Shown piece after piece: positions 6,122 to 46,807 of a stretch of DNA of 64,000 nucleotides. Below the pieces are notes generated by a model. It was not told the DNA's origin, did not search any database, and saw only the letters and a program-made list of their open reading frames with translations. Origin of the DNA: an uncultured Eubacteriales bacterium (GTDB taxonomy: Bacteria > Bacillota > Clostridia > Oscillospirales > CAG-272); the NCBI GenBank assembly GCA_934462825.1, contig CAKSIP010000003.1:477-64476 (forward strand), written 5' to 3'. Positions within the stretch are counted from its first letter, which is position 1; every line of letters begins with the position of its first letter. Made by a program: the position numbers and the translations under genes.

Positions 6122-7027
6122 TCAGATCAGCTTTTCTGCTCGCATCAGTGCGAGAAGCTGAGCGCGGTGTGCCTCCTCCATAGGAGTCAGAGGCAAGCGG
6201 AGATAGTCCCGGCAAAAGCCCATGGCGGACATGGCGGCCTTTACGGGAATCGGATTCACTTCCGAAAACAGCGCCGAGATCAGCGCATGGTAGTGGCATT
6301 GCATGTCGGCGCTTTTCTCGATGTCTCCGTCAAAGAAGCAGTTGCACATTTCTACGGTTTCGGCGGGAAGCAGGTTGGACAGAACCGAGATCACGCCTTT
6401 GCCGCCCAGCGAAAGCAGGGGAACAATCTGATCATCGTTGCCGGAATAGAGATCTAACCGTCCGCGCACACGCGCCATCGTTTCTACGATTTTGGAAAGG
6501 TTTCCGTTGGCTTCCTTGATGGCAACGATGTTTTCGTGATCGGCCAGCGCCTCGTAGGTGGCCGGCTCGATGTTGATGCCGGTGCGCGAGGGGACGTTGT
6601 AAAGAATAATAGGCTTCGGGCTGTAGTCAGCCAGATCCGTGAACATACGGATCAGTCCGTTTTGCGTGGCTTTGTTGTAATAGGGAGTTACCACCAGCAT
6701 CGCGTCGGCGCCCGACGCGGCGGCGCAACGGATCAGATCCTTCGCATAGGCGGTGTCGTTGCTGCCGGCGCCCGCAATGACCGGAACGCGTCCGGCGGCG
6801 CGCTTTACGGCGTATTCAATGACATTCCGATGCTCGTCGTCGGTCATGGTGGACGATTCTCCGGTCGTGCCGCAGATGACAAGGGCATTGATCCCTTTTT
6901 CAATTTGCCAATCAATCAACCGCCCCAGCTGTTCATAGTTGACGCCGTTTTCATCCATCGGAGTAATCAATGCCGTGGCTACCCCGCGGAAAATTGTTTT
7001 TTTCGTGTTCTTTTCTGTGTTTGCCAT
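6122..7027 (-). CDS. dapA: 4-hydroxy-tetrahydrodipicolinate synthase
   Basis: GTTGES motif and the Schiff-base lysine segment VAIKEA. Start set to the internal ATG (MANTEKN...) preceded by GGAGGT. The 32 codons upstream in the tracked ORF overlap the riboswitch expression platform. Confidence 0.88.
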   Translation of the reverse strand: MANTEKNTKKTIFRGVATALITPMDENGVNYEQLGRLIDWQIEKGINALVICGTTGESSTMTDDEHRNVIEYAVKRAAGRVPVIAGAGSNDTAYAKDLIRCAAASGADAMLVVTPYYNKATQNGLIRMFTDLADYSPKPIILYNVPSRTGINIEPATYEALADHENIVAIKEANGNLSKIVETMARVRGRLDLYSGNDDQIVPLLSLGGKGVISVLSNLLPAETVEMCNCFFDGDIEKSADMQCHYHALISALFSEVNPIPVKAAMSAMGFCRDYLRLPLTPMEEAHRAQLLALMRAEKLI

Positions 7028-7169
7028 TTCGTTACCTCCGTGGTTTTCTGTATTTTTCACATTTGTTTTATGGGGCATGGCGGTGCATAAAACAAAAAAG
7101 CAGCTGACGGAACAATCAGCCACTCAATCTATAAAACAATCGCAAGGGGGAAAAGCCCCTCGGCTTTCG

Positions 7170-7348
7170 CTTACAAATATAAGATAGCGCTCCGTCAAGA
7201 AAATGACGACAGTTCGGCGGATCTTATTCCGGGGAACCAGCGGGCTTGTTGCCTGTCAAGCCTACTTCGGCGTCCGCACCTTTCGCGGAACGGCCGGGCG
7301 GCCTTTGAAAAGTTCCGTTACTGATTGCAAAACGCACCTCTATCAATT
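7170..7348 (-). promoter_or_regulatory. Lysine riboswitch (L-box) leader of the dapA-dapB-dapF-dapL-lysA operon
   Basis: The minus-strand transcript reads ...GATAGAGGTGCG...CAGTAAC...GAAAGGTGCGGACGCCGAAG...CTGGTTCCCC...GAACTGTCGTCA...GAGCGCTATC. This matches the conserved L-box blocks as remembered from B. subtilis lysC (AGAGGTGCG, AGTA, GAAAGG..GTCGCCGAAG, CTGG, CTGTCA). A stem plus T-run (gctga..tcagc tgcttttttg) follows at about 7090-7125 before the dapA RBS. Confidence 0.8.
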
Positions 7349-7354
7349 TTTTGT

Positions 7355-7383
7355 ATTGTATCACAGATATTTCCGTTTGTCAA
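7355..7383 (-). promoter_or_regulatory. Sigma-A-type promoter for the L-box/dap operon
   Basis: On the minus strand: TTGACA, a 17-nt spacer, then TGaTACAAT (extended -10). It lies a few nt upstream of the riboswitch 5' block. Confidence 0.6.
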
Positions 7384-7496
7384 CTGCTTTTTTTCATTAT
7401 TTACCGAAAGTTGCGGAAAGTATGTCTAAGGAGAGGGATTTTCTTCCCGCGGCCTTGGCGAAAGGCGGGGCGAGAGGGGATTTTCTTGCGAAAAAC

Positions 7497-7525
7497 TTGC
7501 AAAAGCCGGAATATTATGATAAAAT
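7497..7525 (+). promoter_or_regulatory. Sigma-A-type promoter upstream of dut
   Basis: TTGCAA, a 17-nt spacer, then TGaTAAAAT. It is followed by a leader of about 140 nt that ends in a purine-rich tract before the dut ATG. Confidence 0.5.
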
Positions 7526-7668
7526 AAAGATTATATATGATACAAGCGTCAGGGGCGTTGCGACACCCATGCGATGCCGCGGCCAAACGCGCAGCGCGGT
7601 AAGCAGACTGCGCGAATCCCAGAACACAGGAAACAGGAAAAAGAAAAGCAAAGGAAGAAAAGAAAAGC

Positions 7669-8124
7669 ATGAACATGAAAAAGAATGTAAAAATTCGGAT
7701 GACACGAGGCATGCCTTTGCCGATGTATGCCACCCCCGGCTCGGCGGCGTTGGATTTGCGCGCCGCGCTGGACGAGGGGGGCGTTTTGACCTTGCAGCCG
7801 GGCGAGAGAGCCGTAGTGCCGACGGGGGTACAAATTGCCCCGGAGGAAAGCGATACGGTAGCGATTGTGGCGGCGCGAAGCGGTCTTGCCATCCGGCACG
7901 GCATCACACTTTCCAACGGGATCGGAGTGATTGATTCGGATTACCGGGGAGAAATTTGTGTTGGACTTGTCAATCACGGACAAGAGAGCTTTACGATTGA
8001 ACGGGGCGACCGCATCGCGCAATTGATGTTTCTGCCGGTGTATGCAGCGGCGCTGCTGCCGACAGAGGATTTGGACGCAACGGATCGCGGCGCCGGGGGC
8101 TTTGGCTCCACGGGCGTGAAGTAA
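7669..8124 (+). CDS. dut: dUTP diphosphatase
   Basis: 151 aa with PGSAALDLRA, GVIDSDYRGEI and a C-terminal GGFGSTG motif. Confidence 0.9.
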   Translation: MNMKKNVKIRMTRGMPLPMYATPGSAALDLRAALDEGGVLTLQPGERAVVPTGVQIAPEESDTVAIVAARSGLAIRHGITLSNGIGVIDSDYRGEICVGLVNHGQESFTIERGDRIAQLMFLPVYAAALLPTEDLDATDRGAGGFGSTGVK

Positions 8125-29141: not shown

Positions 29142-29206
29142 AACGCTGTGTCAACGGATTGTTCAATAACAATCGACAAAAAATACACATACAAAGGAGA
29201 AATATC

Positions 29207-32200
29207 ATGAAAAAGACATGGACCAAGCTGATTTTGGCGATTTTGACGCTGGCGATGATCCTGTCGCTTACGGGGTGCCCTAAGAAGAATCCCGATCCGA
29301 CACCCACGCCTTCGACTTCTTCCCAGCAGCCCACCCCCACTCCCTCGCAGGGTGGAGGAACACCCACACCCACTTCCAACCCTACACCCACACCCACACC
29401 CACTTCCAACCCTACACCCACACCCACTTCCAACCCTACACCCACACCCACTTCCAACCCTACACCTACACCCACTCCCGAACCTACCCCCACACCTCCT
29501 GTGGATCCCGGTAAAGTCAACGAGTTCCTGAAGGCATTCCTGCCTGAAAGCGCTCTGTTGAAGGGCGATGTTGTATGGACAAACGGCGAAGATTATGAAG
29601 ACTACATCGGTTGGGTAGCTTATACCGAGCTGGATGGCTTCTTCGCAGCCAGCAACAATGCCGGCAAGGACAAAACCGCTTCCGAAATGAAGCTGAACTT
29701 TGGTCTTGCAAAGAAATCCGACCTTACCTTTAAGGTAAAAGTAGACGTCGGAACCGAAAGCGGTTGGGACGGCTTCTACATGATCGTTGACGGCGTTGTT
29801 TACACCGGCGACGGCACAATCATTTGGGCTGAAGGCGCACACAACTTCGGACATGTGTACGAAGGCTGGTCGCTGAACCAGACCGTTAAGGGCATGGCGG
29901 ACGACGCATTCCTCCATGTTTTCAAAGACGGTGAGCACACGGTAACCCTTTGCCTGGACGAAGGTAACCATGAAATCCGTTTCGGCTTCCTGAAAGACTG
30001 GGCCGGCGGCAACAGGACAGAGAGAGCTTACCTTTCTACCGCTACATTGGCAGAGCACAAAGAAGAAGAGCCTCCGACACCTCCGGTACCGAAGAACTAT
30101 GAAGTCGGCTTCAACGCAGCAGGTCTGCGCGTGGACGCCTACAAAGACGAAATTTACAACCACGGCGAACCCATCGAAATCAACTCTGCTCTCGGCTTTG
30201 CTAACAACAACTACAACGCAGATAACTACGATGGCAAATTTGCCAAGGCATGGGTAGCCCATGACGGCACCGGCCTTTACATCTATGCAGAAGTTTCCGA
30301 TAACAGCATTCATTCGGATGAGTACTATGCAAACGGTAACGAGTCGAACGACTGCTTGCAGGTTTATCTCGACTTCGTAAGAGACTTTGAAGAAAAAGGC
30401 GTGACAACTAGCGCCTACAAAGCCACCGGAACAGCCGGCTCCAGAAGACTTGGCTTCGTGGCCATTGCTCCTTCCGGCCGTGTGTTCCAGAACTGGGGCT
30501 TTAGCGGCGTACCGGAAGTTGCCGGTGCTGCAAGAAAAATTGACGGCGGTTACGCTGTTGAATTGTACGTTCCTTTCCCGGAATCCAAGGTTAGCACCAT
30601 CGGTATCGGCTTTGAGGTTCATGATGACATTACCGGAACGGGCAACCAAAAGGACGTATACTACTACAGCGCTCCTAACGGAACCAGCTGGTGGAACTCC
30701 TACGAGACATTGACTCTCTATGATCTCGCAGAAGAAACCAAGTACGAGGGCCGCGTGGCAGCTTACACGGACAAAATCAACCTGGATGGCTACCTGGATG
30801 AAGTTTATAAGAACGGCACAGAGCTGATCCTCGACAAGAGCACCTATTGGTCGAGCAACCCCGCTGACTATAACGGCAGCGGCAAAGCATACTTTGCCTT
30901 TACCGACGACGCACTTTATCTGTACGTTACAGTAAATGATACGACAATCATTTCCGCAGACAAAGACGATAAGGTTGCAGAAACCGGCGATAAGGTTTGC
31001 TTGTACCTCGACTTCAAAGGCTCGATGGAAGCAGAAGGCCTTGACAGCGGTGCTTATAAGAGCAAATATGCCAACAACTCCGAATCCGCTATCAACAAAA
31101 AGACGCTGGGCTGGATCTGCGTGGATCCCACCGGCAATATCCAAGGAAACTTCGGCTTCCGTTCGGAAGCTAACGATGGCACCCCTGTAGCAGGTACGGA
31201 CTATAAGTTCGTCGTTACCTCTGAGGGTTATGCAGTCGAGCTGAGAGTTCCGCTGGCTGACCACCTGATGGCATCGCTCAAGAGAAATGCAATCACGACC
31301 ATCGGCGCGGGCTTTGAAGTTCATGACGACACCAACGGCGATAACAACAGAGATGCCATTTTCGGTGACAGCGCAAATGCTGTTAACTATTGGGCTATGT
31401 ACGGCCTGTTCCCGACCTTGAAGCTTGACAAGAGCACGTTCCAGGCAAACACCGAAACCTCCAAATTCTACGAAGCCGCTCATGTAGCAGCCGGCCTTAT
31501 CGTGGATGGCAAGAAAGATGCCGCTTACGATGATTCCAAGGCAATTCTTTTCAACAACGCTATGGAAGGCGCAAATTCCGACGCTAAGGGCTTCGGTAAA
31601 GCTTGGGTTGCCAACGATGCAAAGGGTATCTACGTTTACGCAGAAATTATGGATGACACGCTCGGCGAAACTCCTTCCAAGGGCGACAAGTTCACCATTT
31701 ACCTTGACTACATCAACAACCATGGCCAGGAAGGCGTGGAATCCGGTGTAAGATACCGCAACCAGTACCAAAAGCATTCGGGTAACTGGTATATGTCCAT
31801 CGGTTCGATGACCGTTTTTGCAGACGGCACTTACGATTTTGCTTACGGTATGCTGGCTCGCTTCAACGGCAACGCCGACAATAGCGAAATGCCTATCGCA
31901 ACCAGCCGCATCGAAGGCGGTTGGGCTGTTGAGTGCTACATCGCATTTGACGTTATGACCACCGATACATTCGGCCTTGGCTTTGAAGCCTATGACGACA
32001 TTACCGGTGACGGCGAAAGCGATGCCGTTTACATGGATCAGAACCTCGGTCAGTCCTATGACAAGTACTATGAAGGTCTGAAGGACATTATGGTTGACAG
32101 AACCGGCTTGATCGGTGTTGGCACGGCTGTTGTGGATGCAGAGTATGACGAAGCTTATGCAGCAGGCCAGAAGATTTCCACCAGAAACTTCCTCGGCAAA

Positions 32201-32737
32201 CCGTACTTTGAGAAAGGTCAGCCCAATGTTGACGCAACGATCATTCATGACGACAAGGGACTTTACATCTACGCAACGGTAGAAGACACCACGATTTATG
32301 ATCATGAGTTCTACAAAGAAGGCAATGAAGGCAACGATAACGTACAGTTCTACATTGACTTTGCAAGAGACTATGAAGAAAAAGGCGTGACGGGCGGCGA
32401 CTATAAAGCCACCGGAACAGCCGGTTCCAGAAGACTTGGCTTCGTGTGCGTAGGCCCGACAGGCGTGGTTTACAGCAACTGGGGCTTCAAGGCCGCCGAC
32501 GGCACGGTGGATCCCGAAATCAAGGCAGCGGCTAAGCGGATTGATGGCGGTTATGTTATCGAAGTCTTTATCCCGTTTGCCGGTGAAGACATTATGGGTG
32601 ACATCGTATCTATCGGTATGCAGTTGAATAACGATACTAACCAAGACCATGCGGTAGATATTAACAGATGGGACATCTACTACGGTTGGGGCTACTACTA
32701 CATGTACGAAAATCTCCCGATGTACAAACTCGCTTAA
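29207..32737 (+). CDS. Large cell-surface lipoprotein: signal/lipobox, Pro-Thr linker, N-terminal beta-sandwich-like domain and four CBM9-like (carbohydrate-binding family 9 / DOMON-like) modules
   Basis: AAGGAGA RBS. MKKTWTKLILAILTLAMILSLTGC is a lipobox signal. A (TPTPTSNP)n linker follows. Four modules of about 200 aa share the CBM9-style pattern (V/L)D(G/A).(K/L)DE.Y ... A(K)AWVA.D..G(L/I)Y(I/V)YA.V.D ... D.(L/V/F).(V/I/F)Y(L/I)DF ... GGY.(V/I)E(L/V)..P ... G.GFE..DD. Modules 1 and 4 also share long DNA identity (EEKGVT..YKATGTAGSRRLGFV). Confidence 0.7.
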   Translation: MKKTWTKLILAILTLAMILSLTGCPKKNPDPTPTPSTSSQQPTPTPSQGGGTPTPTSNPTPTPTPTSNPTPTPTSNPTPTPTSNPTPTPTPEPTPTPPVDPGKVNEFLKAFLPESALLKGDVVWTNGEDYEDYIGWVAYTELDGFFAASNNAGKDKTASEMKLNFGLAKKSDLTFKVKVDVGTESGWDGFYMIVDGVVYTGDGTIIWAEGAHNFGHVYEGWSLNQTVKGMADDAFLHVFKDGEHTVTLCLDEGNHEIRFGFLKDWAGGNRTERAYLSTATLAEHKEEEPPTPPVPKNYEVGFNAAGLRVDAYKDEIYNHGEPIEINSALGFANNNYNADNYDGKFAKAWVAHDGTGLYIYAEVSDNSIHSDEYYANGNESNDCLQVYLDFVRDFEEKGVTTSAYKATGTAGSRRLGFVAIAPSGRVFQNWGFSGVPEVAGAARKIDGGYAVELYVPFPESKVSTIGIGFEVHDDITGTGNQKDVYYYSAPNGTSWWNSYETLTLYDLAEETKYEGRVAAYTDKINLDGYLDEVYKNGTELILDKSTYWSSNPADYNGSGKAYFAFTDDALYLYVTVNDTTIISADKDDKVAETGDKVCLYLDFKGSMEAEGLDSGAYKSKYANNSESAINKKTLGWICVDPTGNIQGNFGFRSEANDGTPVAGTDYKFVVTSEGYAVELRVPLADHLMASLKRNAITTIGAGFEVHDDTNGDNNRDAIFGDSANAVNYWAMYGLFPTLKLDKSTFQANTETSKFYEAAHVAAGLIVDGKKDAAYDDSKAILFNNAMEGANSDAKGFGKAWVANDAKGIYVYAEIMDDTLGETPSKGDKFTIYLDYINNHGQEGVESGVRYRNQYQKHSGNWYMSIGSMTVFADGTYDFAYGMLARFNGNADNSEMPIATSRIEGGWAVECYIAFDVMTTDTFGLGFEAYDDITGDGESDAVYMDQNLGQSYDKYYEGLKDIMVDRTGLIGVGTAVVDAEYDEAYAAGQKISTRNFLGKPYFEKGQPNVDATIIHDDKGLYIYATVEDTTIYDHEFYKEGNEGNDNVQFYIDFARDYEEKGVTGGDYKATGTAGSRRLGFVCVGPTGVVYSNWGFKAADGTVDPEIKAAAKRIDGGYVIEVFIPFAGEDIMGDIVSIGMQLNNDTNQDHAVDINRWDIYYGWGYYYMYENLPMYKLA
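29360..29500 (+). repeat. 24/30-bp in-frame tandem repeats encoding the Pro-Thr linker
   Basis: The unit acacccacacccacttccaaccct (TPTPTSNP) is repeated four times, with one 30-bp variant, then a degenerate TPTPTPEPTPTPP tail. Confidence 0.9.
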
Positions 32738-32989: not shown

Positions 32990-33535
32990 AATCGGGCCCC
33001 TGCTTTTTTGTTGCGGCCACACCGCCCCGCCCACCGTCTACCATTACTCGTCGCGCCGCCCCGCCCGGCCGCGTGCCGCAGATTTTTGAGGGCTTTTTTG
33101 TTGCCGCCGCCGCTACCCCGCGCGAAAAAAGCTCACCCGCCCGCCGTTCGTGCGAAAAAATGCTCACCCGGCCGCCCGTCAACCCGCCCGCTGCATGTCG
33201 TAGGTTTGGGCGTTTTTTTGTTGCGGCCACCGCCGCCACGTGTCGCCCGCCGTTCGCACAAAAAAGGCTCACCCGGCCACGCGCCCCCGCTCCCGCCCAC
33301 CGTTCGTGCGAAAAAACGGCCGTGCGGCCACCCGTCAACCCGCCCGCTGCATGTCGTAGGTTTTGGCGGTTTTTTGTTGCCGCCGCCGCTAACCTGCGAG
33401 GAAAAACGGCTCACTCGGCCGCCCGACACCACGCGCCGCCCGCGCGCCGCGTGTCGTAGGTTGGGGTGTTTTTTTGTTGCGCCCACGTGCCCCGCCGTTC
33501 GCGCGGAAAAACGGCCGCTTTTTCACCCCTGTGCA
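32990..33535. repeat. Degenerate GC-rich non-coding tandem-repeat array (about 5 units of roughly 90-155 bp)
   Basis: Each unit begins with a T6-7 run followed by GTTGC(C/G)GCC (33003, 33094, 33213, 33368, 33468). Units share blocks such as cccgccgttcg(t/c)gc(g)aaaaaa.g(g)c, gtcaacccgcccgctgcatgtcgtaggtt(t)gg and ctcacccggcc. The ORFs crossing it are Pro/Arg/Ala-rich repeats in several frames. Confidence 0.8.
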
Positions 33536-33594
33536 GGGAAATTTGCTTTTTGGGCGGCTTTGGAAGGGCCAAATTGATTTTTTGCGGGAACTTC

Positions 33595-33623
33595 TTGACA
33601 GGCCGCAGGGGGTATGGTATCAT
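33595..33623 (+). promoter_or_regulatory. Sigma-A-type promoter upstream of the EEP gene
   Basis: TTGACA, a 17-nt spacer, then TGgTATCAT. It lies about 45 nt upstream of the ATG at 33667. Confidence 0.5.
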
Positions 33624-33666
33624 AATATCAAAATTTGCGAATGGCTTGACACGAAAGGAAAAAATT

Positions 33667-34371
33667 ATGGCAACTTTCATTGACGGAAAACTGACGCTGA
33701 CTGTGGCAACCTACAATATTGCGGGCGGTTCTTACTGCGACGTCGCCCTGAAGGAGCTGGCCGCCGATGTGATCGCTTCGGGCGCCGACATCGTTGGCTT
33801 GCAGGAGGTGGATCGCTTTGTGCCGCGCTCCGGCCATCGTGATATGCTGGCCATTCTCGCCGGAGAGGCCGGATTTCCCTATTCGTTTTTTGTCCGCGCC
33901 ATTGACTTGAAGGGCGGGGAATACGGTACCTCCATCCTCAGCAAGTACCCCATAGAAGCCTCCGAGGTGATTCCGCTGGATTCGCCCCATGTCGAGGGGC
34001 GGTCGGTCGGCCGAACCGTGATCAATGTCTGCGGGATCAAGGTCAACTATTTCAACACCCACCTCGCTTTTGAAAACGACGAGGCGATCCTGTATCACTT
34101 CGATCAGGTCGCTGAAATTTTGAAAAAATACGATTCTTATATCATCACGGCCGACTACAACACCAACAATTATGCTCTGTTCAACCGCTTTCACGGTCAT
34201 CGGCTGGTCAACAACGAGGAGCATCCGTGGACAACCTTTCCTTCCTCCGGCGTCGGTATTGACAACATTGTTATGACCGAGGATTGGAGCTTTGGCAACG
34301 TACAGATAGGCCCGCAGGGGCATTCCGACCATTGCCTGCTTTCCGCTACGCTGGAAAAGCAGGTGGGATAA
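33667..34371 (+). CDS. Endonuclease/exonuclease/phosphatase (EEP) family protein
   Basis: MATFIDGKLTLTVATYNIAGG, GLQEVD and a C-terminal SDHCLL motif are typical of the EEP fold. No signal peptide. Start set at the ATG after GAAAGGA (the tracked ORF starts inside the repeat array). Confidence 0.75.
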   Translation: MATFIDGKLTLTVATYNIAGGSYCDVALKELAADVIASGADIVGLQEVDRFVPRSGHRDMLAILAGEAGFPYSFFVRAIDLKGGEYGTSILSKYPIEASEVIPLDSPHVEGRSVGRTVINVCGIKVNYFNTHLAFENDEAILYHFDQVAEILKKYDSYIITADYNTNNYALFNRFHGHRLVNNEEHPWTTFPSSGVGIDNIVMTEDWSFGNVQIGPQGHSDHCLLSATLEKQVG

Positions 34372-35586: not shown

Positions 35587-35835
35587 ATGCCCCAAACAAG
35601 CAATTATAGGAACATTGCACAAAATGGCAAACGCCGAATTGTGCAGATTTCACGACGAAAAAGGCTCCGGGCTTTATGAAATTTTCCCATATATTCCTTC
35701 GCGTCTTTTTGCTTTATTATAAAAAATTTACAATTTTTCAGTAGAAGCTTTGGCGGAAAAATGATATTATATACTAAACTATTATGCCTATTTTCGTTCC
35801 CTTCAAAAAATAAAGAGAGAAGAAAGGTGACTTTT

Positions 35836-37926
35836 ATGAAAAATTGGACGAGATTTTTCAGCTTGCTTTTGGCGCTGGTTTGCGTGGCAGGCACTTTGAT
35901 CGCTTGTCAGCCCAAGCAGCCCGACGAAACGCCGAGCGCAACGCCAACCACAACCCCCTCCGAAACGCCCAAGCCGGAGGATCCGGAGCGCTTCCTTACG
36001 CTGGTGGATGGCGTGGCGACTTCCTACACCATCATCCGCCCTTCCGAGACGACCACGGCCGTGAAGAACGCGGGTAAAAAAATGCGGGAAGGCCTGCGTG
36101 CGTACGTGAAGGATGTGACGCTGACCGAGGACTTTCTGATGAAGGATCAACAGCCGGGAACCTATGAAATTTTGATCGGTCAAACCAACCGCGAGGAATC
36201 CATCGAGGCGCTCAAGGGCGCCAACTACGATGACGTGATTGTGGCCGTGACCGGTGACAAGCTGGTGATTAACTCTTATAACGACGAAAAGCTGCTGCCG
36301 GCCGTGGAAAAGGTGCTGGCCTCGCTGAAAAGCGAGAACGGCAAGGTGCTGCTGAGCAGCAAGGCGGCCTTTGAGGAAAGGGCGACCTATCCGTTCCCCG
36401 ACCTTGCGTTGAACGGCCATTTGCTGAAGGATTACCGTATCGTGGTGCCGGCGGCTCCGCATGCCCTGGTGAAAAACGCAGCGGAGCGGCTTCAGAAAGC
36501 CATTATTGCGGCTTGCGGAACTTGCCTTCCGATTGTGAACGATCATTCCGAAGCGACGGAAAAAGAAATTGTGATCGGGAAAAATGAGCGCCCCGCTTCT
36601 TCCATCATAGATTTGGACAATCTGTCCGACTATACTTGCGTGATCAAAAACAGCGGCGCCGCCCTTGTTGTGGGCGCGACCGATAACAGCTTTGCTTTGA
36701 GCCAGGCGCTGGACGCCCTGACAAAAATGGTGGCGGCCGGCAAAATCGAGGAAAAGACGATTACGCTGGACAACTGCATCACGCCGATGCTGACGGCGTT
36801 CTGCTTTACCGATGTGCATAACTGCTTCGCCATGCTGGAGCCGCCTTACGTTTTCCGCAAAACCGCCACGCTGGCCATTGACACACTGCTGGCAACGACC
36901 GGTCAGGTGGATATTGTTCTGGACGGCGGCGACCTTATGAGCGACTATCCGTCATGGACAACCTCCGGCCACTTGCCGTATGAATACTTTCTCGGCTTCA
37001 AGGAGCTTACGGTGAAAACGTATGCCGCGCTGGCCAAGGACGGCAAGGTGATGTACGTGGCTGGAAACCACGACTATGCCCAGGGCGAGGAAGCGACCGA
37101 CGGCCCCGGCAAGAACGGCTCCTATAACTCGGCGGATTTCTACTTCTCCGGCCCGATGAAAGACACGCTTGGCGAGCTGCCCGACAGCGAAAAGCATGAG
37201 ATCGTCGGCAGACATACCGGCGAAAAATATCTGTTGGCGTTCCATTACGTGGTGAACGGCGTGGACTTTATCGGTTTGGCGCCCGATCCCGACCTGATTT
37301 GGTCAAATCAACAGTGGGCGTTCAACCAGGATTCGATGCGATGGCTGAAAAACAAGCTGAACGAAATTGATCCCGACGGCATCAAGCCGATCTTTATGGT
37401 TTGCCATTACGCAACGGATCAGAGAGACGCAAGATATGAGGACGTGAATCAAGGCATCCATCATGACTCCTCCGTGGTGCTGTCCCTTTTGCCTGTGCTG
37501 AAGGGGCACCGCAATCTGTTCTATTTGTACGGCCATTGGACGTGTGCGCACAGCTTCCACACCGACTATACGGTTAAAAACGTATTGCACTACAATGATA
37601 AAGGCAACGTGATTGACATTCGGGGCAACGAAACGCAATCGACCGAGGTGGTGCCCGTGGAAAAGCGGTTTTTCAACGCGGTTTGGATGGGCGGCTTCCG
37701 TCTCGACTACAACAAAGAGGACTTCAATAATGACGCGCTGTTTGGCTATGGCGGCTACACGAAAAAGCAGTTTTTCCCCACCACCGCAACGCCGAAGCTT
37801 TCGCAGGGCATGTATATTGAAGTGTTCCCGGATCGCGTGGTGTTTACCATGAAGAACTTTGGTACAAAGAAAGGCTTTGAAACCGGAACCCAGCTGGAGC
37901 CTTACACCGTGTACTTGTATCGATAA
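35836..37926 (+). CDS. Metallophosphoesterase lipoprotein, array member P1 (696 aa)
   Basis: Lipobox signal MKNWTRFFSLLLALVCVAGTLIAC, then a Pro/Thr/Glu linker. Two modules of about 130 aa match the pattern seen in glycosidase N-terminal accessory domains (YEILIGQTNREES..., EIVIGKNERP...). Calcineurin-like motifs follow: FTDVHN, GGDLMSD, AGNHDY, VCHYA, YGHW. A conserved C-terminal domain ends the protein (FPTTATPKLSQGMYIEVFPDRVVFTMKNFG...EPYTVYLYR). Confidence 0.75.
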   Translation: MKNWTRFFSLLLALVCVAGTLIACQPKQPDETPSATPTTTPSETPKPEDPERFLTLVDGVATSYTIIRPSETTTAVKNAGKKMREGLRAYVKDVTLTEDFLMKDQQPGTYEILIGQTNREESIEALKGANYDDVIVAVTGDKLVINSYNDEKLLPAVEKVLASLKSENGKVLLSSKAAFEERATYPFPDLALNGHLLKDYRIVVPAAPHALVKNAAERLQKAIIAACGTCLPIVNDHSEATEKEIVIGKNERPASSIIDLDNLSDYTCVIKNSGAALVVGATDNSFALSQALDALTKMVAAGKIEEKTITLDNCITPMLTAFCFTDVHNCFAMLEPPYVFRKTATLAIDTLLATTGQVDIVLDGGDLMSDYPSWTTSGHLPYEYFLGFKELTVKTYAALAKDGKVMYVAGNHDYAQGEEATDGPGKNGSYNSADFYFSGPMKDTLGELPDSEKHEIVGRHTGEKYLLAFHYVVNGVDFIGLAPDPDLIWSNQQWAFNQDSMRWLKNKLNEIDPDGIKPIFMVCHYATDQRDARYEDVNQGIHHDSSVVLSLLPVLKGHRNLFYLYGHWTCAHSFHTDYTVKNVLHYNDKGNVIDIRGNETQSTEVVPVEKRFFNAVWMGGFRLDYNKEDFNNDALFGYGGYTKKQFFPTTATPKLSQGMYIEVFPDRVVFTMKNFGTKKGFETGTQLEPYTVYLYR

Positions 37927-40120: not shown

Positions 40121-42196
40121 ATGAGATTTTTGACGAGATTTTTCAGCTTGCTTTTGGCGCTGATTTGCGTGGCAGGTGCTTTGACCGCTTGCCGGCCCAA
40201 ACAACCCGACGAAACGCCGACCGCAACCCCATCCGAAACGCCAAAGCCGGAGGAGCCGGAGCGCTTCCTCACGCTGGCGGATGGCACATCCAGCCAATAT
40301 AAGGTGATTCGTCCTACAGAAACGACACAGGCGGTGAAAGACGCCGCGGTAAAGATGCGCGAGGGGTTGCGCACCTATGCGCCGGCTCTTTGGCTGGAGG
40401 AGGATTTCCTTATAAAAGGCCAAACGCCGGGCAACTATGAAATCTTGATCGGTCAAACCAACCGCGAGGAATCGGATCAGGCACTGAAAGGCGCGAAATA
40501 CGACGATGTGGTGGTAACGATGATCGGTGAAAAATTGGTTATCAATTCCTACAACGACGAAAAGCTGGAGGGCGCTGTCGAAAAGGTGCTGGCCGCGCTG
40601 AAAAACGAGAACGGCAAGGTGCTTTTGAGCAACAAATCGACCTTTGCCGAAAGAGCCACCTACCCGCTGTCCGACATCACGCTGAACGGCACTTCGCTGA
40701 AGGATTACCGTATCGTGACAAAGGCAAAGCCTCACGCCTTTGTGAAAAACGGAGTGGAACGGTTGCAGAAAGCCATTATTGCAGCCAGCGGCTTTTATCT
40801 GCCGATTATCACCGATAGCACCGAGGCCACGGGAAAAGAAATTGTCGTCGGAGAAAGCAAACGCCCTGCATCGACCGGGACGGATGTTAGCGAAATCGGC
40901 GCCTATACGTACATTATCAAAGACAGCGACGGCAATGTGGTCGTTTGTGCATCGGATAATGATTATACCTTAAGTCAGGCGTTGGACGCACTGACAAAAA
41001 TGGTAGGAAGCGGAAAGGTCGAGGAAACGAAAATGACGCTGGACAATTGCATCACACCGATGCTGACCTCCTTCTGCTTTACCGATACGCACAACTGCTT
41101 TTCCATGCTGGAGCCTCCCTACATTTTCCGCAAAAATGCGCAGGCCGCCATTGACTACCTGCTGAAAACGACCGGACAGGTGGATGTCGTTCTGGAGGGC
41201 GGCGACTTTATGAGCGATTACCCGACATGGCAAAGCTCCGGCCACTTGCCGTATGAATATTACCTCGGCTTCAAGAAAATGGCCACCGAGCGATATGCAA
41301 AGCTTGCGAAGGGTGGCAAGGTGATGTACGTAGCCGGAAACCACGACTACGCGCAGGGCGAAGAATCCACCGACGGCCCCGGCAAAAACGGTTCTTACAA
41401 CTCCTCGGAATTTTATTTTACCGGCCCGATGAAGGAAACCCTTGGCGAATTGGCCGATGACGAAAAATTTGAGATCGTCGGCACGCACACCGGGGAAAAG
41501 TATCTTTTGGCCTATCACTATGTCATCAACGGCGTTGATTTTGTCGGTCTGTCGCCCGATCCCGATCGGGTCTGGTCGGCACAGTCATACGGCTTCAATA
41601 CCGCCTCGCTGAATTGGCTGAAAAACAAGCTGAATGAAATTGATCCCGAAGGCATCAAGCCGATCTTTATGCTTTGCCATTACGCCATGTCTCAGCGTGG
41701 GACCGACGTAGAGCTGAACACGCCTTATAGTGACCACATCATTACGGATGCCATGATGCCGGTTCTCAAGGGGCATCACAACCTGTTTTACATGTTCGGA
41801 CATTGGGCCAGCTATGTGTCCTTCCACACCGATTTTACTGTAAAAAACGTGATGCATTACAATGTCATGGGAAATATTTTCAATATTAAAGGCGATGAAA
41901 CAGACTCTACCGCGGTGGCCTCGTATGACAAACGGTACTTTACGGCCGTTTGGATGGGCGGCTTCCGTTTGGATCACGACACTCATATGTATTTCAACAA
42001 TGACATTCCGTATGGATACGGCGGCTATACCCAACAGCAATCTTTCCCCTCCGCCGCTACGCCGAAATTGGCGCAGGGCATGTACATTGAAGTGTTCCCG
42101 GATCGCGTGGTGTTTACCATGAAGAACTTCGGCACGTGGGAAGGCTTTAAAACCGGAACCCAGCTGGAGCCTTATACGGTCTATCTTTACAAATAA
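40121..42196 (+). CDS. Metallophosphoesterase lipoprotein, array member P3 (691 aa)
   Basis: Signal MRFLTRFFSLLLALICVAGALTAC. Same domain order as P1 and P2. The catalytic half is almost identical to P2 over long stretches. Confidence 0.75.
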   Translation: MRFLTRFFSLLLALICVAGALTACRPKQPDETPTATPSETPKPEEPERFLTLADGTSSQYKVIRPTETTQAVKDAAVKMREGLRTYAPALWLEEDFLIKGQTPGNYEILIGQTNREESDQALKGAKYDDVVVTMIGEKLVINSYNDEKLEGAVEKVLAALKNENGKVLLSNKSTFAERATYPLSDITLNGTSLKDYRIVTKAKPHAFVKNGVERLQKAIIAASGFYLPIITDSTEATGKEIVVGESKRPASTGTDVSEIGAYTYIIKDSDGNVVVCASDNDYTLSQALDALTKMVGSGKVEETKMTLDNCITPMLTSFCFTDTHNCFSMLEPPYIFRKNAQAAIDYLLKTTGQVDVVLEGGDFMSDYPTWQSSGHLPYEYYLGFKKMATERYAKLAKGGKVMYVAGNHDYAQGEESTDGPGKNGSYNSSEFYFTGPMKETLGELADDEKFEIVGTHTGEKYLLAYHYVINGVDFVGLSPDPDRVWSAQSYGFNTASLNWLKNKLNEIDPEGIKPIFMLCHYAMSQRGTDVELNTPYSDHIITDAMMPVLKGHHNLFYMFGHWASYVSFHTDFTVKNVMHYNVMGNIFNIKGDETDSTAVASYDKRYFTAVWMGGFRLDHDTHMYFNNDIPYGYGGYTQQQSFPSAATPKLAQGMYIEVFPDRVVFTMKNFGTWEGFKTGTQLEPYTVYLYK

Positions 42197-42220
42197 TTTG
42201 CGGACAAATGAGGTGCATTT

Positions 42221-43387
42221 ATGAACTGTAACAAACAAGAACCAAAATTGACAGCCTTTTGCTTTACCGATACGCACAACTGCTTTTCCATGCTGGAGCC
42301 TCCGTATGTTCTTCGGAAAACGGTTTCGATGGCTGTGGATGCCCTGCTGAAAACCAAAGGGCAGGTGGATGTGGTGCTGGAGGGCGGGGATTGCATGAGC
42401 GATTACCCGACATGGACCAGCTCCGGCCACTTGCCGTATGCGTACTACAAAGACTTCAAAGCCCTTGTGGTGGAAAATTACGCAAAGCTGGCCAAGGGCG
42501 GCAAGGTGATGTATGTGACCGGCAACCATGACTACGCGCAGGGCGAAGAAGCCACCGACGGCCCCGGCAAAAACGGCTCTTATAATTCCTATGACTTTTA
42601 CTATACCGGCCCGATGAAGGAAACGCTTGGCGAGTTGGCCGATAACGAAAAGTTTGAGATCATCGGCACGCATACCGGCGAAAAGTATCTTTTGGCGTAC
42701 CACTATGTTATCAACGGCATTGATTTTGTCGGCCTGTCGCCCGATCCCGATTTGATCTGGTCGGAACAGGCGTACGGCTTCAATGTTTCCTCGCTGGATT
42801 GGCTGAAAAACAAGCTGGAGGAGATGGATCCCGACGGCACCAAACCGATCTTTATGCTCTGCCACTACGCCATTTCCCAGCGCGCGACAATCAAGGATTT
42901 GAATGACCCTTATGAGGACGACACGATTACAACAACGCTCGCTCCGATTCTCAAGGGACATCGCAATCTGTTTTATTTGTTTGGCCATTGGGCGAACTAT
43001 GTGTCCTTTTACACCGACAACACGGTGAAAAGCGTGATGCACTATACGCCCGAAGGTAAAATCATTCCCATTCGCGGGGATGAAACGGAATCGACGGCTT
43101 TGGCGCCCCTTCAAGAGCGCTCGTTCAACGCAGTGTGGATGGGAGGCTTCCGCTTGGATCATGACGGTCAAACACAATATTTTGAGGACGACGCGGTAGA
43201 AGGCTGGGGCGGCTATACCGACCATAAGCGGGTTTTCCCCTCCACCGCTACACCAAAGCTGGCACAGGGCATGTACATCGAAGTGTTCCCGGATCGCGTG
43301 GTGTTTACCATGAAGAACTTCGGCACGTGGGAAGGAATAAAAACGGGAACGGAATTGAAGCCCTATACCGTGTACTTGAACCAATAA
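42221..43387 (+). CDS. Leaderless metallophosphoesterase, array member P4 (388 aa; catalytic and C-terminal domains only)
   Basis: Starts MNCNKQEPKLTAFCFTDTHNCF, exactly at the catalytic-domain boundary. GAGGTG lies 6 nt upstream. No signal peptide and no N-terminal modules. Motifs GGDCMSD, TGNHDY, LCHYA, FGHWANYVSFY. Confidence 0.7.
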   Translation: MNCNKQEPKLTAFCFTDTHNCFSMLEPPYVLRKTVSMAVDALLKTKGQVDVVLEGGDCMSDYPTWTSSGHLPYAYYKDFKALVVENYAKLAKGGKVMYVTGNHDYAQGEEATDGPGKNGSYNSYDFYYTGPMKETLGELADNEKFEIIGTHTGEKYLLAYHYVINGIDFVGLSPDPDLIWSEQAYGFNVSSLDWLKNKLEEMDPDGTKPIFMLCHYAISQRATIKDLNDPYEDDTITTTLAPILKGHRNLFYLFGHWANYVSFYTDNTVKSVMHYTPEGKIIPIRGDETESTALAPLQERSFNAVWMGGFRLDHDGQTQYFEDDAVEGWGGYTDHKRVFPSTATPKLAQGMYIEVFPDRVVFTMKNFGTWEGIKTGTELKPYTVYLNQ

Positions 43388-43413
43388 AACAAAAGATAAC
43401 AAGAGGATAGAGT

Positions 43414-44610
43414 ATGAATCCCAAAATCGAAAGTCAAGAAAATCCGCAGGCAAAACCGATTTTGACATCCTTTTGCTTTTCGGATGTGCACAACTGCTTT
43501 TCCATGTTGGAGCCGCCGTATGTGCTGAGAAAATCGGCCACGCTGGCCATTGATACACTGCTTGCGACCAAAGGTCAGGTCGATGTGGTGATGATGGGCG
43601 GCGATTATATGAGCGATTACCCCGGCTGGCTCAACTGCTCCAACACCCTGCCGTACGCATACTATCTCGGCTATAAGGCGGCTACCGTGAAGGAATACGC
43701 CCGGTTGGCCAAGGACGGCAAGGTGCTCTACTGTGCCGGCAACCACGATTTTGCCCAAGGCGAGGCGGCTACCGACGGCCCCGGCAAGAACGGCTCCTAC
43801 AATTCCTTTGAATTTTATTATACCGGCCCGATGAATCAAACGCCCGGCCCGCTTCCCGACAGCGAGCGTTTTGAAATCGTGGGCGAGCATACCGGGGAGA
43901 AATATCTGCTTTGTTACCATTACGAAATCCGGGGCGTGCACTTTTTGGCGCTGTCCCCCGATCCCGATCAAATCTGGAACACGCAGTGCGTCGGCTTCCA
44001 TCCGGATTCCTTGACCTGGCTGAAAAACAAGCTGGAGGAGATCGACCCGGACGGCAAGGAAGTGATTTTCCTGAGCTGCCACTATGCTATGGATCAGAGA
44101 GACGCTCGCTCGGAAAATGTGAATGAAGGCTTCCACCACGATGATTTCATTGCCGGTACCATCGGCTCGTTGTTGCTCGGACATCGCAATCTGTTCTATA
44201 TGTACGGCCATTGGACGTGTGCGCACAGCTTCCATAAGGGAACAACGGTAAAAAATGTGATCCACTATTACAAGGATCAATCCATTATCCCGATTGAGGG
44301 CGACGAGCTTTCCTCGCGTGAGGTGAAGGATGCGGAAAAGCGCGCCTTCAGCTCCGTGTGGATGGGCGGCTTCCGTTTGGATCATAACGGAAATCAGGAG
44401 TATTTTGAGGATGATCCCGTCGAAGGGTGGGGCGGCTATACCGATAAAAAGCGGAAATTCCCCTCCACGGCAACGCCCAAAATGTCGCAGGGCATGTATA
44501 TAGATGTGTTTCCCGACCGCGTTGTGTTTACCATGATGAACTTCGGAAACTATCCCGGTTATGAAACCGAAACGCCCATTGCGCCTTACACGGTGTATCG
44601 GAACGATTAA
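43414..44610 (+). CDS. Leaderless metallophosphoesterase, array member P5 (398 aa; catalytic and C-terminal domains only)
   Basis: Starts MNPKIESQENPQAKPILTSFCFSDVHNCF. AAGAGGA RBS. No signal peptide. Motifs GGDYMSD, AGNHDF, SCHYA, YGHWTCAHSFH. Confidence 0.7.
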   Translation: MNPKIESQENPQAKPILTSFCFSDVHNCFSMLEPPYVLRKSATLAIDTLLATKGQVDVVMMGGDYMSDYPGWLNCSNTLPYAYYLGYKAATVKEYARLAKDGKVLYCAGNHDFAQGEAATDGPGKNGSYNSFEFYYTGPMNQTPGPLPDSERFEIVGEHTGEKYLLCYHYEIRGVHFLALSPDPDQIWNTQCVGFHPDSLTWLKNKLEEIDPDGKEVIFLSCHYAMDQRDARSENVNEGFHHDDFIAGTIGSLLLGHRNLFYMYGHWTCAHSFHKGTTVKNVIHYYKDQSIIPIEGDELSSREVKDAEKRAFSSVWMGGFRLDHNGNQEYFEDDPVEGWGGYTDKKRKFPSTATPKMSQGMYIDVFPDRVVFTMMNFGNYPGYETETPIAPYTVYRND

Positions 44611-44683
44611 ATTCAAGCTCTTTCCGCAAAAGCGTCATTGCTTTTGCAGAAAGGCAGAAAAATAGAAAGGTAGAAAAACTTAA

Positions 44684-46768: not shown

Positions 46769-46807
46769 GGGGAGTTAAAAAACGCAAAATGCGTTTTTTA
46801 ACTCCCC
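46769..46807. repeat. Palindromic A-run/T-run element, copy e (3' of the array)
   Basis: ggggagttaaaaaacgca-aaa-tgcgttttttaactcccc, followed by ctttttgtttttt. Confidence 0.8.

Follow-up and report, generated by a model that had tools for sequence, protein, structure and literature searches.

The window analyzed here is a 64,000-nucleotide stretch of DNA from an uncultured Eubacteriales bacterium (GTDB lineage Clostridia; Oscillospirales; CAG-272; GenBank assembly GCA_934462825.1, contig CAKSIP010000003.1, positions 477 to 64,476), the source being a 1.82-Mb metagenome-assembled genome, 96% complete, of a spore-forming member of the gut Clostridia. Between 35.8 and 46.8 kb, the window carries 6 head-to-tail metallophosphoesterase paralogues on the plus strand, of which P1 to P3 and P6 are long and P4 and P5 are short (Table 1). 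The long forms consist, from the N to the C terminus, of a lipoprotein signal peptide (lipobox L[TI]AC), a Pro/Thr-rich linker, approximately 265 residues forming 2 modules, and the catalytic part. The 2 modules, modeled by AlphaFold with a predicted local distance difference test score (pLDDT) of 81, match the non-catalytic N-terminal accessory domains of glycosidases from families GH20, GH84, GH67, and GH115. P4 and P5 lack the signal peptide, the linker, and both modules (approximately 305 residues), and the nature, origin, and likely location of these 2 short proteins are the subject of this study.

A preliminary description of the window presented P4 and P5 as leaderless forms that start just before the first catalytic motif, each with its own Shine-Dalgarno (SD) sequence, and the coordinates, the alignment, and the hydrophobicity profiles all agree with it. 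P4 starts 9 residues and P5 16 residues ahead of the first metal-binding motif, and the alignment to the 4 long paralogues opens at ..PKLTAFCFTDTHN (P4 residue 8) and ..KPILTSFCFSDVHN (P5 residue 14). Each start codon is preceded by an in-frame stop, TGA 3 codons ahead of the P4 ATG and TAG 1 codon ahead of that of P5, so that neither an N-terminal extension nor a frameshifted signal peptide is possible. The stop codon of P3 and the start codon of P4 lie in one frame, 27 nt apart (42194–42223), with TAA and TGA in between; a P3-P4 fusion is unlikely because both stops would have to be read through. The maximum Kyte-Doolittle hydrophobicity over the first 40 residues is 0.61 for P4 and 0.83 for P5, compared to 2.8 to 2.9 for P1 to P3 and P6, and a simple hydrophobicity and pattern test (rather than a trained predictor) revealed neither a hydrophobic segment nor a lipobox in this region of either short protein. 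We thus rejected P4 and P5 as lipoproteins or Sec-exported proteins, as they lack the hydrophobic segment and the lipobox cysteine or signal-peptidase site. Remnants of the linker or of the N-terminal modules were not detectable upstream of P4 and P5 by local alignment against 1,000 shuffled sequences (p = 0.11 to 0.88), and the apparent remnants "NC" and "KIE" noticed by eye fail this same test.

Table 1. Features of the metallophosphoesterase array, the seventh family member, and related arrays. L, long gene; S, short gene; brackets denote a gene cut by the contig end.
Feature	Position	Strand	Description
P1, long lipoprotein metallophosphoesterase	35836..37926	+	ORF (open reading frame) opens at 35761 (721 aa); start homologous to that of the paralogues is M26, 35836
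P2, long form, 692 aa	37983..40061	+	N-terminal modules P1-like, catalytic part P3-like (recombinant)
P3, long form, 691 aa	40121..42196	+	Lipobox LTAC, Pro/Thr linker, 2 GH20b-like accessory modules, metallophosphoesterase domain
P3-P4 spacer, 24 nt	42197..42220	+	SD GAGGTG 42210–42215; in-frame TGA 42209–42211; no hairpin
P4, short leaderless metallophosphoesterase, 388 aa	42221..43387	+	
P4-P5 spacer, 26 nt	43388..43413	+	SD AAGAGGA 43401–43407; in-frame TAG 43408–43410
P5, short leaderless metallophosphoesterase, 398 aa	43414..44610	+	
P6, long form, 688 aa	44684..46750	+	Other subclade, shared with the terminal long genes of 4 other arrays
Intrinsic terminator	46769..46807	+	18-bp stem followed by T-run; sole convincing plus-strand terminator of the array
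Seventh family member, 382 aa	contig C25, 10670..11791 (locus L011, ~6662–7813)		Leaderless (MEKQPRLTALCFSDIHN)
Array L096			(L)-L-S-S-(L)
Array L097			(L)-S-S-L-(L)
Array L099			(L)-S-(L)
Array L106			L-L-S-L-S-L, complete
Array L107			(L)-S-L-S-L-S
Array L110			(L)-L-S-L-S-(L)
Array L111			S-L
Arrays L108 and L109			L-L only

All 6 array members match the Pfam family Metallophos (PF00149) above threshold, with scores of 35.0 bits for P4 and 31.4 bits for P5 at a gathering cut-off of 21.5. Metallophosphoesterase motifs I to V (DxH, GDxxD, GNH[DE], H, and GH) are intact in both short proteins (in P4, FTDTH at residue 15, GGDCMSD at 55, GNHD at 101, CHY at 214, and GHRN at 246, with equivalents in P5) and coincide with invariant columns of the family alignment, all invariant family residues being kept. 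The AlphaFold model of P4 (pLDDT 91.5; predicted template modeling score 0.92) is a single compact fold, the sandwich typical of the superfamily. Hence, of the "full catalytic and C-terminal domains" initially ascribed to the short forms, the catalytic motifs I to V and the open frames stand, whereas the model of P4 has no separate C-terminal domain. Foldseek searches with this model returned purple acid phosphatase, Rv0805, SMPDL3A, GpdQ, and Mre11 with a probability of 1.0 (E-values 1e-10 to 1e-6). The nearest solved folds in the PF00149 superfamily, pig purple acid phosphatase (1ute), Rv0805, SMPDL3A/B, and GpdQ, have template modeling scores (TM-scores) of approximately 0.5 and identities of 10% to 14% to P4, which differs from them in having approximately 100 extra residues and no GDxxY tyrosine ligand. 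Judging from the predicted fold, dinuclear (two-metal-ion) phosphoesterase chemistry is the best explanation for P4 and P5.

Narrower assignments were rejected. P4 is not a recognizable purple acid phosphatase, with motif II reading GGDCMSD, a serine at the position of the GDxxY tyrosine, 13% identity to 1ute, and a profile E-value of 5e-4 over 84 residues. Nor is it a 5'-nucleotidase of the UshA/CpdB type, as Pfam detects no 5'-nucleotidase C-terminal domain at E-values up to 0.1. UshA, CpdB, and NadN are likewise exported bacterial metallophosphoesterases, and one of the related arrays (L108) lies near a PnuC-like transporter gene, but the Foldseek match to 2ush is weak (TM-score 0.36). A literature search found no description of this metallophosphoesterase family and no characterized member.

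The short genes have been maintained over considerable divergence. The ratio of nonsynonymous to synonymous substitution rates (dN/dS) is 0.17 to 0.25 for all 15 paralogue pairs (Nei-Gojobori method, 380 shared codons), with dS of 0.87 to 0.92 between P4 and P2/P3 and 1.26 to 1.82 between P5 and the other paralogues. Three contigs from other human-gut samples (L013 to L015; 96% to 98% DNA identity) retain the gene order P3-P4-P5(-P6), with open frames, conserved SD sites and start codons of P4 and P5, an identical P3-P4 spacer, and 2 base differences in the P4-P5 spacer. Relative to this other strain allele, the corresponding polymorphism ratio (pN/pS) is 0.19 for P4, 0.04 for P5, and 0.13 to 0.15 for P3, although the 3 contigs share one P4/P5 allele and hence represent a single independent strain comparison. 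If P4 and P5 were truncated remnants in decay, untranslated or nonfunctional, the disappearance of approximately 305 N-terminal residues present in their closest relatives would be readily understood, as would the replacement in P4 of a downstream histidine (SFH to SFY) that P1 to P3 and P5 have kept. Yet such remnants would hardly display open frames at dS of approximately 0.9 to 1.8 with dN/dS near 0.2, the above strain pN/pS values, conserved SD sites and start codons, and every invariant family residue, and 7 other arrays have retained equivalent short genes (see below); we regard decay as extremely unlikely. Recent truncation was rejected as well, because dS is at least 0.87 and the other strain contigs carry the same short genes rather than full-length ones. 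The initial impression that the pattern does not reflect random pseudogene decay is thereby strengthened, and the case against P4 and P5 being decaying truncations is well supported.

To place the short forms in the context of the family, we surveyed one genome per species, which yielded 104 stretches encoding a relative, the architectures being counted in the best 80. A single short leaderless gene of approximately 370 aa is present in 74 of these 80 loci and a long form in the other 6. The open frame upstream of the short gene is no longer than 77 codons in the 74 loci, and no longer than 23 codons in 65 of these, and cannot encode the N-terminal modules. Most homologues retrieved by word-based and exhaustive HMMER searches are 367 to 400 aa long and start 3 to 12 residues before the first motif. 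Other architectures include proteins of 404 to 407 aa in which the catalytic part directly follows a signal peptide and very long proteins of 920 to 1,244 aa that carry CBM9-like modules, and all architectures join at one border, 2 to 4 residues ahead of LT[AS]F. The source genome also encodes a seventh, leaderless family member on contig C25, 47% identical to P4. Its TTGACA-17-TATAAT promoter is near-perfect and its SD sequence is GGAG, and it groups with short forms only, in a clade separate from the array-forming one. A high-similarity search found a close homologue in only 1 of 60 related genomes, as a single long gene, and no sister species provided an orthologous locus. Judged from the available sequences, the leaderless form of approximately 370 to 400 aa occupies the base of the family and outnumbers all other architectures by far.

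In the preliminary description, the short forms had come across as an oddity, and the question had been raised of whether they co-occur with long forms elsewhere. The leaderless form turns out to be the family default, and 7 other metagenomic arrays interleave long lipoprotein genes with short leaderless ones (Table 1), such mixed arrays being common among gut relatives. The spacers adjoining the short genes in these arrays are often 12 to 40 nt long. A further scan of metagenome contigs added only 4 short contigs. In array L110, the public call for protein P0012 (355 aa, starting MLEPPY) misses the start (6334–6446); an upstream ATG gives MSEKNNPPILTAMCFSDVHN and a short form of approximately 378 aa.

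In the maximum likelihood tree of 45 catalytic parts, the outgroup is entirely short and the short state requires at least 8 changes. Two clades with a support of 100/100 each contain short genes only and are conserved in 4 and 6 arrays, and other short genes nest beside their closest long relative (L107_g2 with g3, L097_g2 with g1, and P0015 with P0022). In the window, the clade P5,(P1,(P4,(P2,P3))) has a support of 100/98. Array position and the C-terminal tails (YLNQ vs YLNK, YRND vs YRNK) had suggested that P4 and P5 are orthologous to the conserved short lineages, a possibility rejected by approximately unbiased (AU) tests (p 5e-7 and 2e-5). A single origin of P4 and P5 is weakly rejected by the AU test (p 0.026), yet P4 and P5 group together over their last 85 residues. 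The catalytic parts of short and long array genes are 64% to 77% identical, and the similarity is unevenly distributed: P4 is approximately 90% identical to P2/P3 over codons 120 to 180 and 85% to 91% identical over codons 80 to 200, compared to 57% to 76% elsewhere. Similarly, the N-terminal modules of P2 are 85% identical to those of P1 and 67% to those of P3, whereas its catalytic part is 88% identical to that of P3 and 72% to that of P1, and the N-module and catalytic trees conflict over P2, both with strong support. Most likely, P4 and P5 originated in this lineage long ago, when long neighbors were duplicated in tandem and the copies lost the 5' 0.9 kb, and some gene conversion took place afterwards. 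The trees further suggest that the 2 genes most likely arose separately, each next to its own long neighbor, and that the array clade has repeatedly gained or retained short forms.

Mosaicism of this kind, namely the patchwork similarity of P4 to P2/P3 and the recombinant nature of P2, could also be expected if the short genes served mainly as donor cassettes for gene conversion, diversifying or repairing the surface lipoprotein genes. This is very unlikely, as P4 and P5 have conserved SD, start, and stop signals, which silent cassettes do not need, purifying selection acts over their whole length, and 2 short lineages are orthologous across arrays instead of being homogenized with their neighbors. 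Silent recombination cassettes of the pilS type, which have no translation signals of their own, were rejected on the same ground. The reverse history, with an ancestral short gene as the source of P4 and P5 and with long forms that acquired their N-terminal part when they recombined with a neighboring gene, is more plausible, albeit still rather unlikely. It would agree with the all-short basal clades, with the undetectable linker remnants upstream of P4 and P5, and with P2, which shows that recombination close to the domain border passes N-terminal parts from one array member to another. However, P4 is nested within P1,(P4,(P2,P3)), strongly in full-length trees and more weakly in 3 of 4 regional trees, and the N-terminal modules of P1 to P3 form one clade, so that the gains would have to be repeated. 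This alternative concerns only the history of the genes and leaves the functional interpretation unchanged.

Within the array, the only convincing plus-strand terminator follows P6, and the spacers preceding the short genes are short and free of hairpins, suggesting that P1 to P6 form one unit, which is probably transcribed as a whole. The P1-P2 (37927–37982) and P2-P3 (40062–40120) spacers share a hairpin, GGGCCGTGAAAAACGGCCC, followed by AAAGGAGG, which scores as a terminator on the minus strand and which is absent from the spacers bordering the short genes. Two antisense ORFs, of 657 aa (41585–43558) and 417 aa (43363–44616), overlap P3 to P5; neither has a Pfam match, and both were rejected as most likely spurious. 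Inside P5, at approximately position 44449, lie the ends of 2 independent metagenome contigs and, exactly there, the N gap of a scaffold, probably because the repetitive 3' ends of the paralogues broke the assembly.

The signal peptides of the long forms are of the Sec type and contain no twin-arginine motif, and TatC was not found in the source genome (96% complete); with TatC absent, a folded short form could not hitchhike out of the cell on a signal-bearing partner. Cysteines average 4.9 in short, 3.4 in long, and 6.6 in basal short forms (Mann-Whitney p 0.001, phylogeny ignored), and the higher values of the short forms fit the exclusion of cysteine from exported proteins in Firmicutes (PMC2823432). 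Collectively, P4 and P5 are probably functional, co-transcribed cytoplasmic paralogues of the surface enzymes. Of the possibilities raised at the outset, cytoplasmic counterparts are thus the best-supported, given the missing export signal, the missing TatC, the leaderless norm of the family, and the somewhat higher cysteine content, with the location itself deduced from these features. The others, in which the short forms would act outside the cell as subunits pairing with the lipoprotein forms or after release by a nonclassical route or lysis, are disfavored. Many metallophosphoesterases are oligomers (GpdQ and Rv0805, for instance), the short genes lie close to the long ones and are probably co-transcribed with them, and their catalytic parts remain 64% to 77% identical and exchange sequence, all of which would be compatible with pairing. 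Against it, neither P4 nor P5 carries an export signal, the Sec-type signal peptides and the missing TatC leave no route for a folded partner, across the family most loci with the leaderless form hold this gene alone and no long partner, and 3 of the 4 other genomes with a long form have no short one; we therefore consider an extracellular role unlikely.

Under the cytoplasmic interpretation, P4 and P5 would be translated as two-metal-ion metallophosphoesterases and, having no export signal, retained in the cytoplasm, whereas P1 to P3 and P6 would be exported by Sec as lipoproteins displaying 2 GH20b-like accessory modules at the cell surface. Expression from a single transcription unit would supply the cell surface and the cytoplasm with the same catalytic fold together. 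In an extracellular polymer that is probably glycan-linked, the surface forms would cut phosphate ester or diester bonds, and the leaderless forms would act on the same type of bond in imported fragments, resulting in a division of labor between 2 compartments.

Several observations weigh against this reconstruction. In P1 to P5, the second histidine of motif VI (GHxH) is replaced by threonine or alanine (GHW[T/A]; FGHWAN at residues 254 to 259 of P4). As it is missing from long and short forms alike, this is not a trait of the short forms alone; GHxH is kept in P6 (GHIH) and the C25 paralogue (GHVH), and many relatives from the array clade have glutamate instead (GHWE, GHYE). Metallophosphoesterases of the PPP type likewise lack this histidine, so that the variant is no bar to superfamily membership or activity. 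Searches with phmmer against the Protein Data Bank gave no match, the profile matches are marginal, and there is neither an NCBIfam model nor a close solved structure. The cysteine difference is modest, with 5 of 7 matched pairs in agreement, and the strain conservation rests on one allele. No transporter adjoins the array within the window, and the neighborhoods of the 80 species loci revealed no conserved partner, the commonest neighbor occurring in 6 of them. Finally, because the genes are mosaic, single-history trees and AU tests are approximate, and the direction of change, loss rather than gain of the N-terminal part, is one that we infer.

The glycosidase-type modules of the long forms and the CBM9-like modules of the very long forms suggest that the substrate is a glycan-linked phosphate ester or diester, as do the genes next to the array in the window, which encode a CBM9-like lipoprotein and an enzyme of the endonuclease/exonuclease/phosphatase (EEP) family, and the GDSL-type esterase and BNR genes beside 2 other arrays. 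Upstream of the array in the window lie genes for a 1,192-aa protein with 4 CBM9-like stretches (29159–32737) and a 301-aa EEP-family protein (33466–34371). Downstream of the arrays L106 (11875–16469) and L108 (4029–7906) are GDSL/GxDLY esterase genes, a BNR_2 (sialidase-like) gene, an AraC regulator, and a PnuC-like transporter, which may hint at the substrate class.

Glycan-utilization loci of gut bacteria pair surface and cytoplasmic enzymes of the same family. The array resembles them in that paralogues with and without an export signal lie side by side, are probably co-expressed, and, in the case of the surface forms, carry glycosidase-type modules, but it differs in encoding phosphoesterases rather than glycosidases, in uniting 6 paralogues in one array, and in having no adjacent transporter or regulator. 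The arrangement is not unique: signal-bearing and leaderless paralogues side by side are already known, and it recurs in this uncharacterized metallophosphoesterase family of gut Clostridia. A bolder proposal, which we put forward tentatively and consider possible but less than likely, is that interleaved arrays of lipoprotein and leaderless genes constitute a conserved locus type of gut Clostridia, in which leaderless copies were created or retained independently at least 5 times and the surface-cytoplasm pairing is obligatory. If true, such obligatory pairing would serve the breakdown of an unrecognized class of phosphorylated polymers, possibly phosphodiester-bridged glycans, with each paralogue pair tuned to a different substrate.

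For annotation, the results imply that the short genes should be called intact enzymes rather than fragments, which corrects the impression of P4 and P5 as odd truncations. At least 104 species-representative genomes carry the family, which is thus widespread among uncultured Clostridia from the guts of humans and ruminants, and the repeated evolution of leaderless copies side by side with lipoprotein copies provides a concrete, testable handle on its function.

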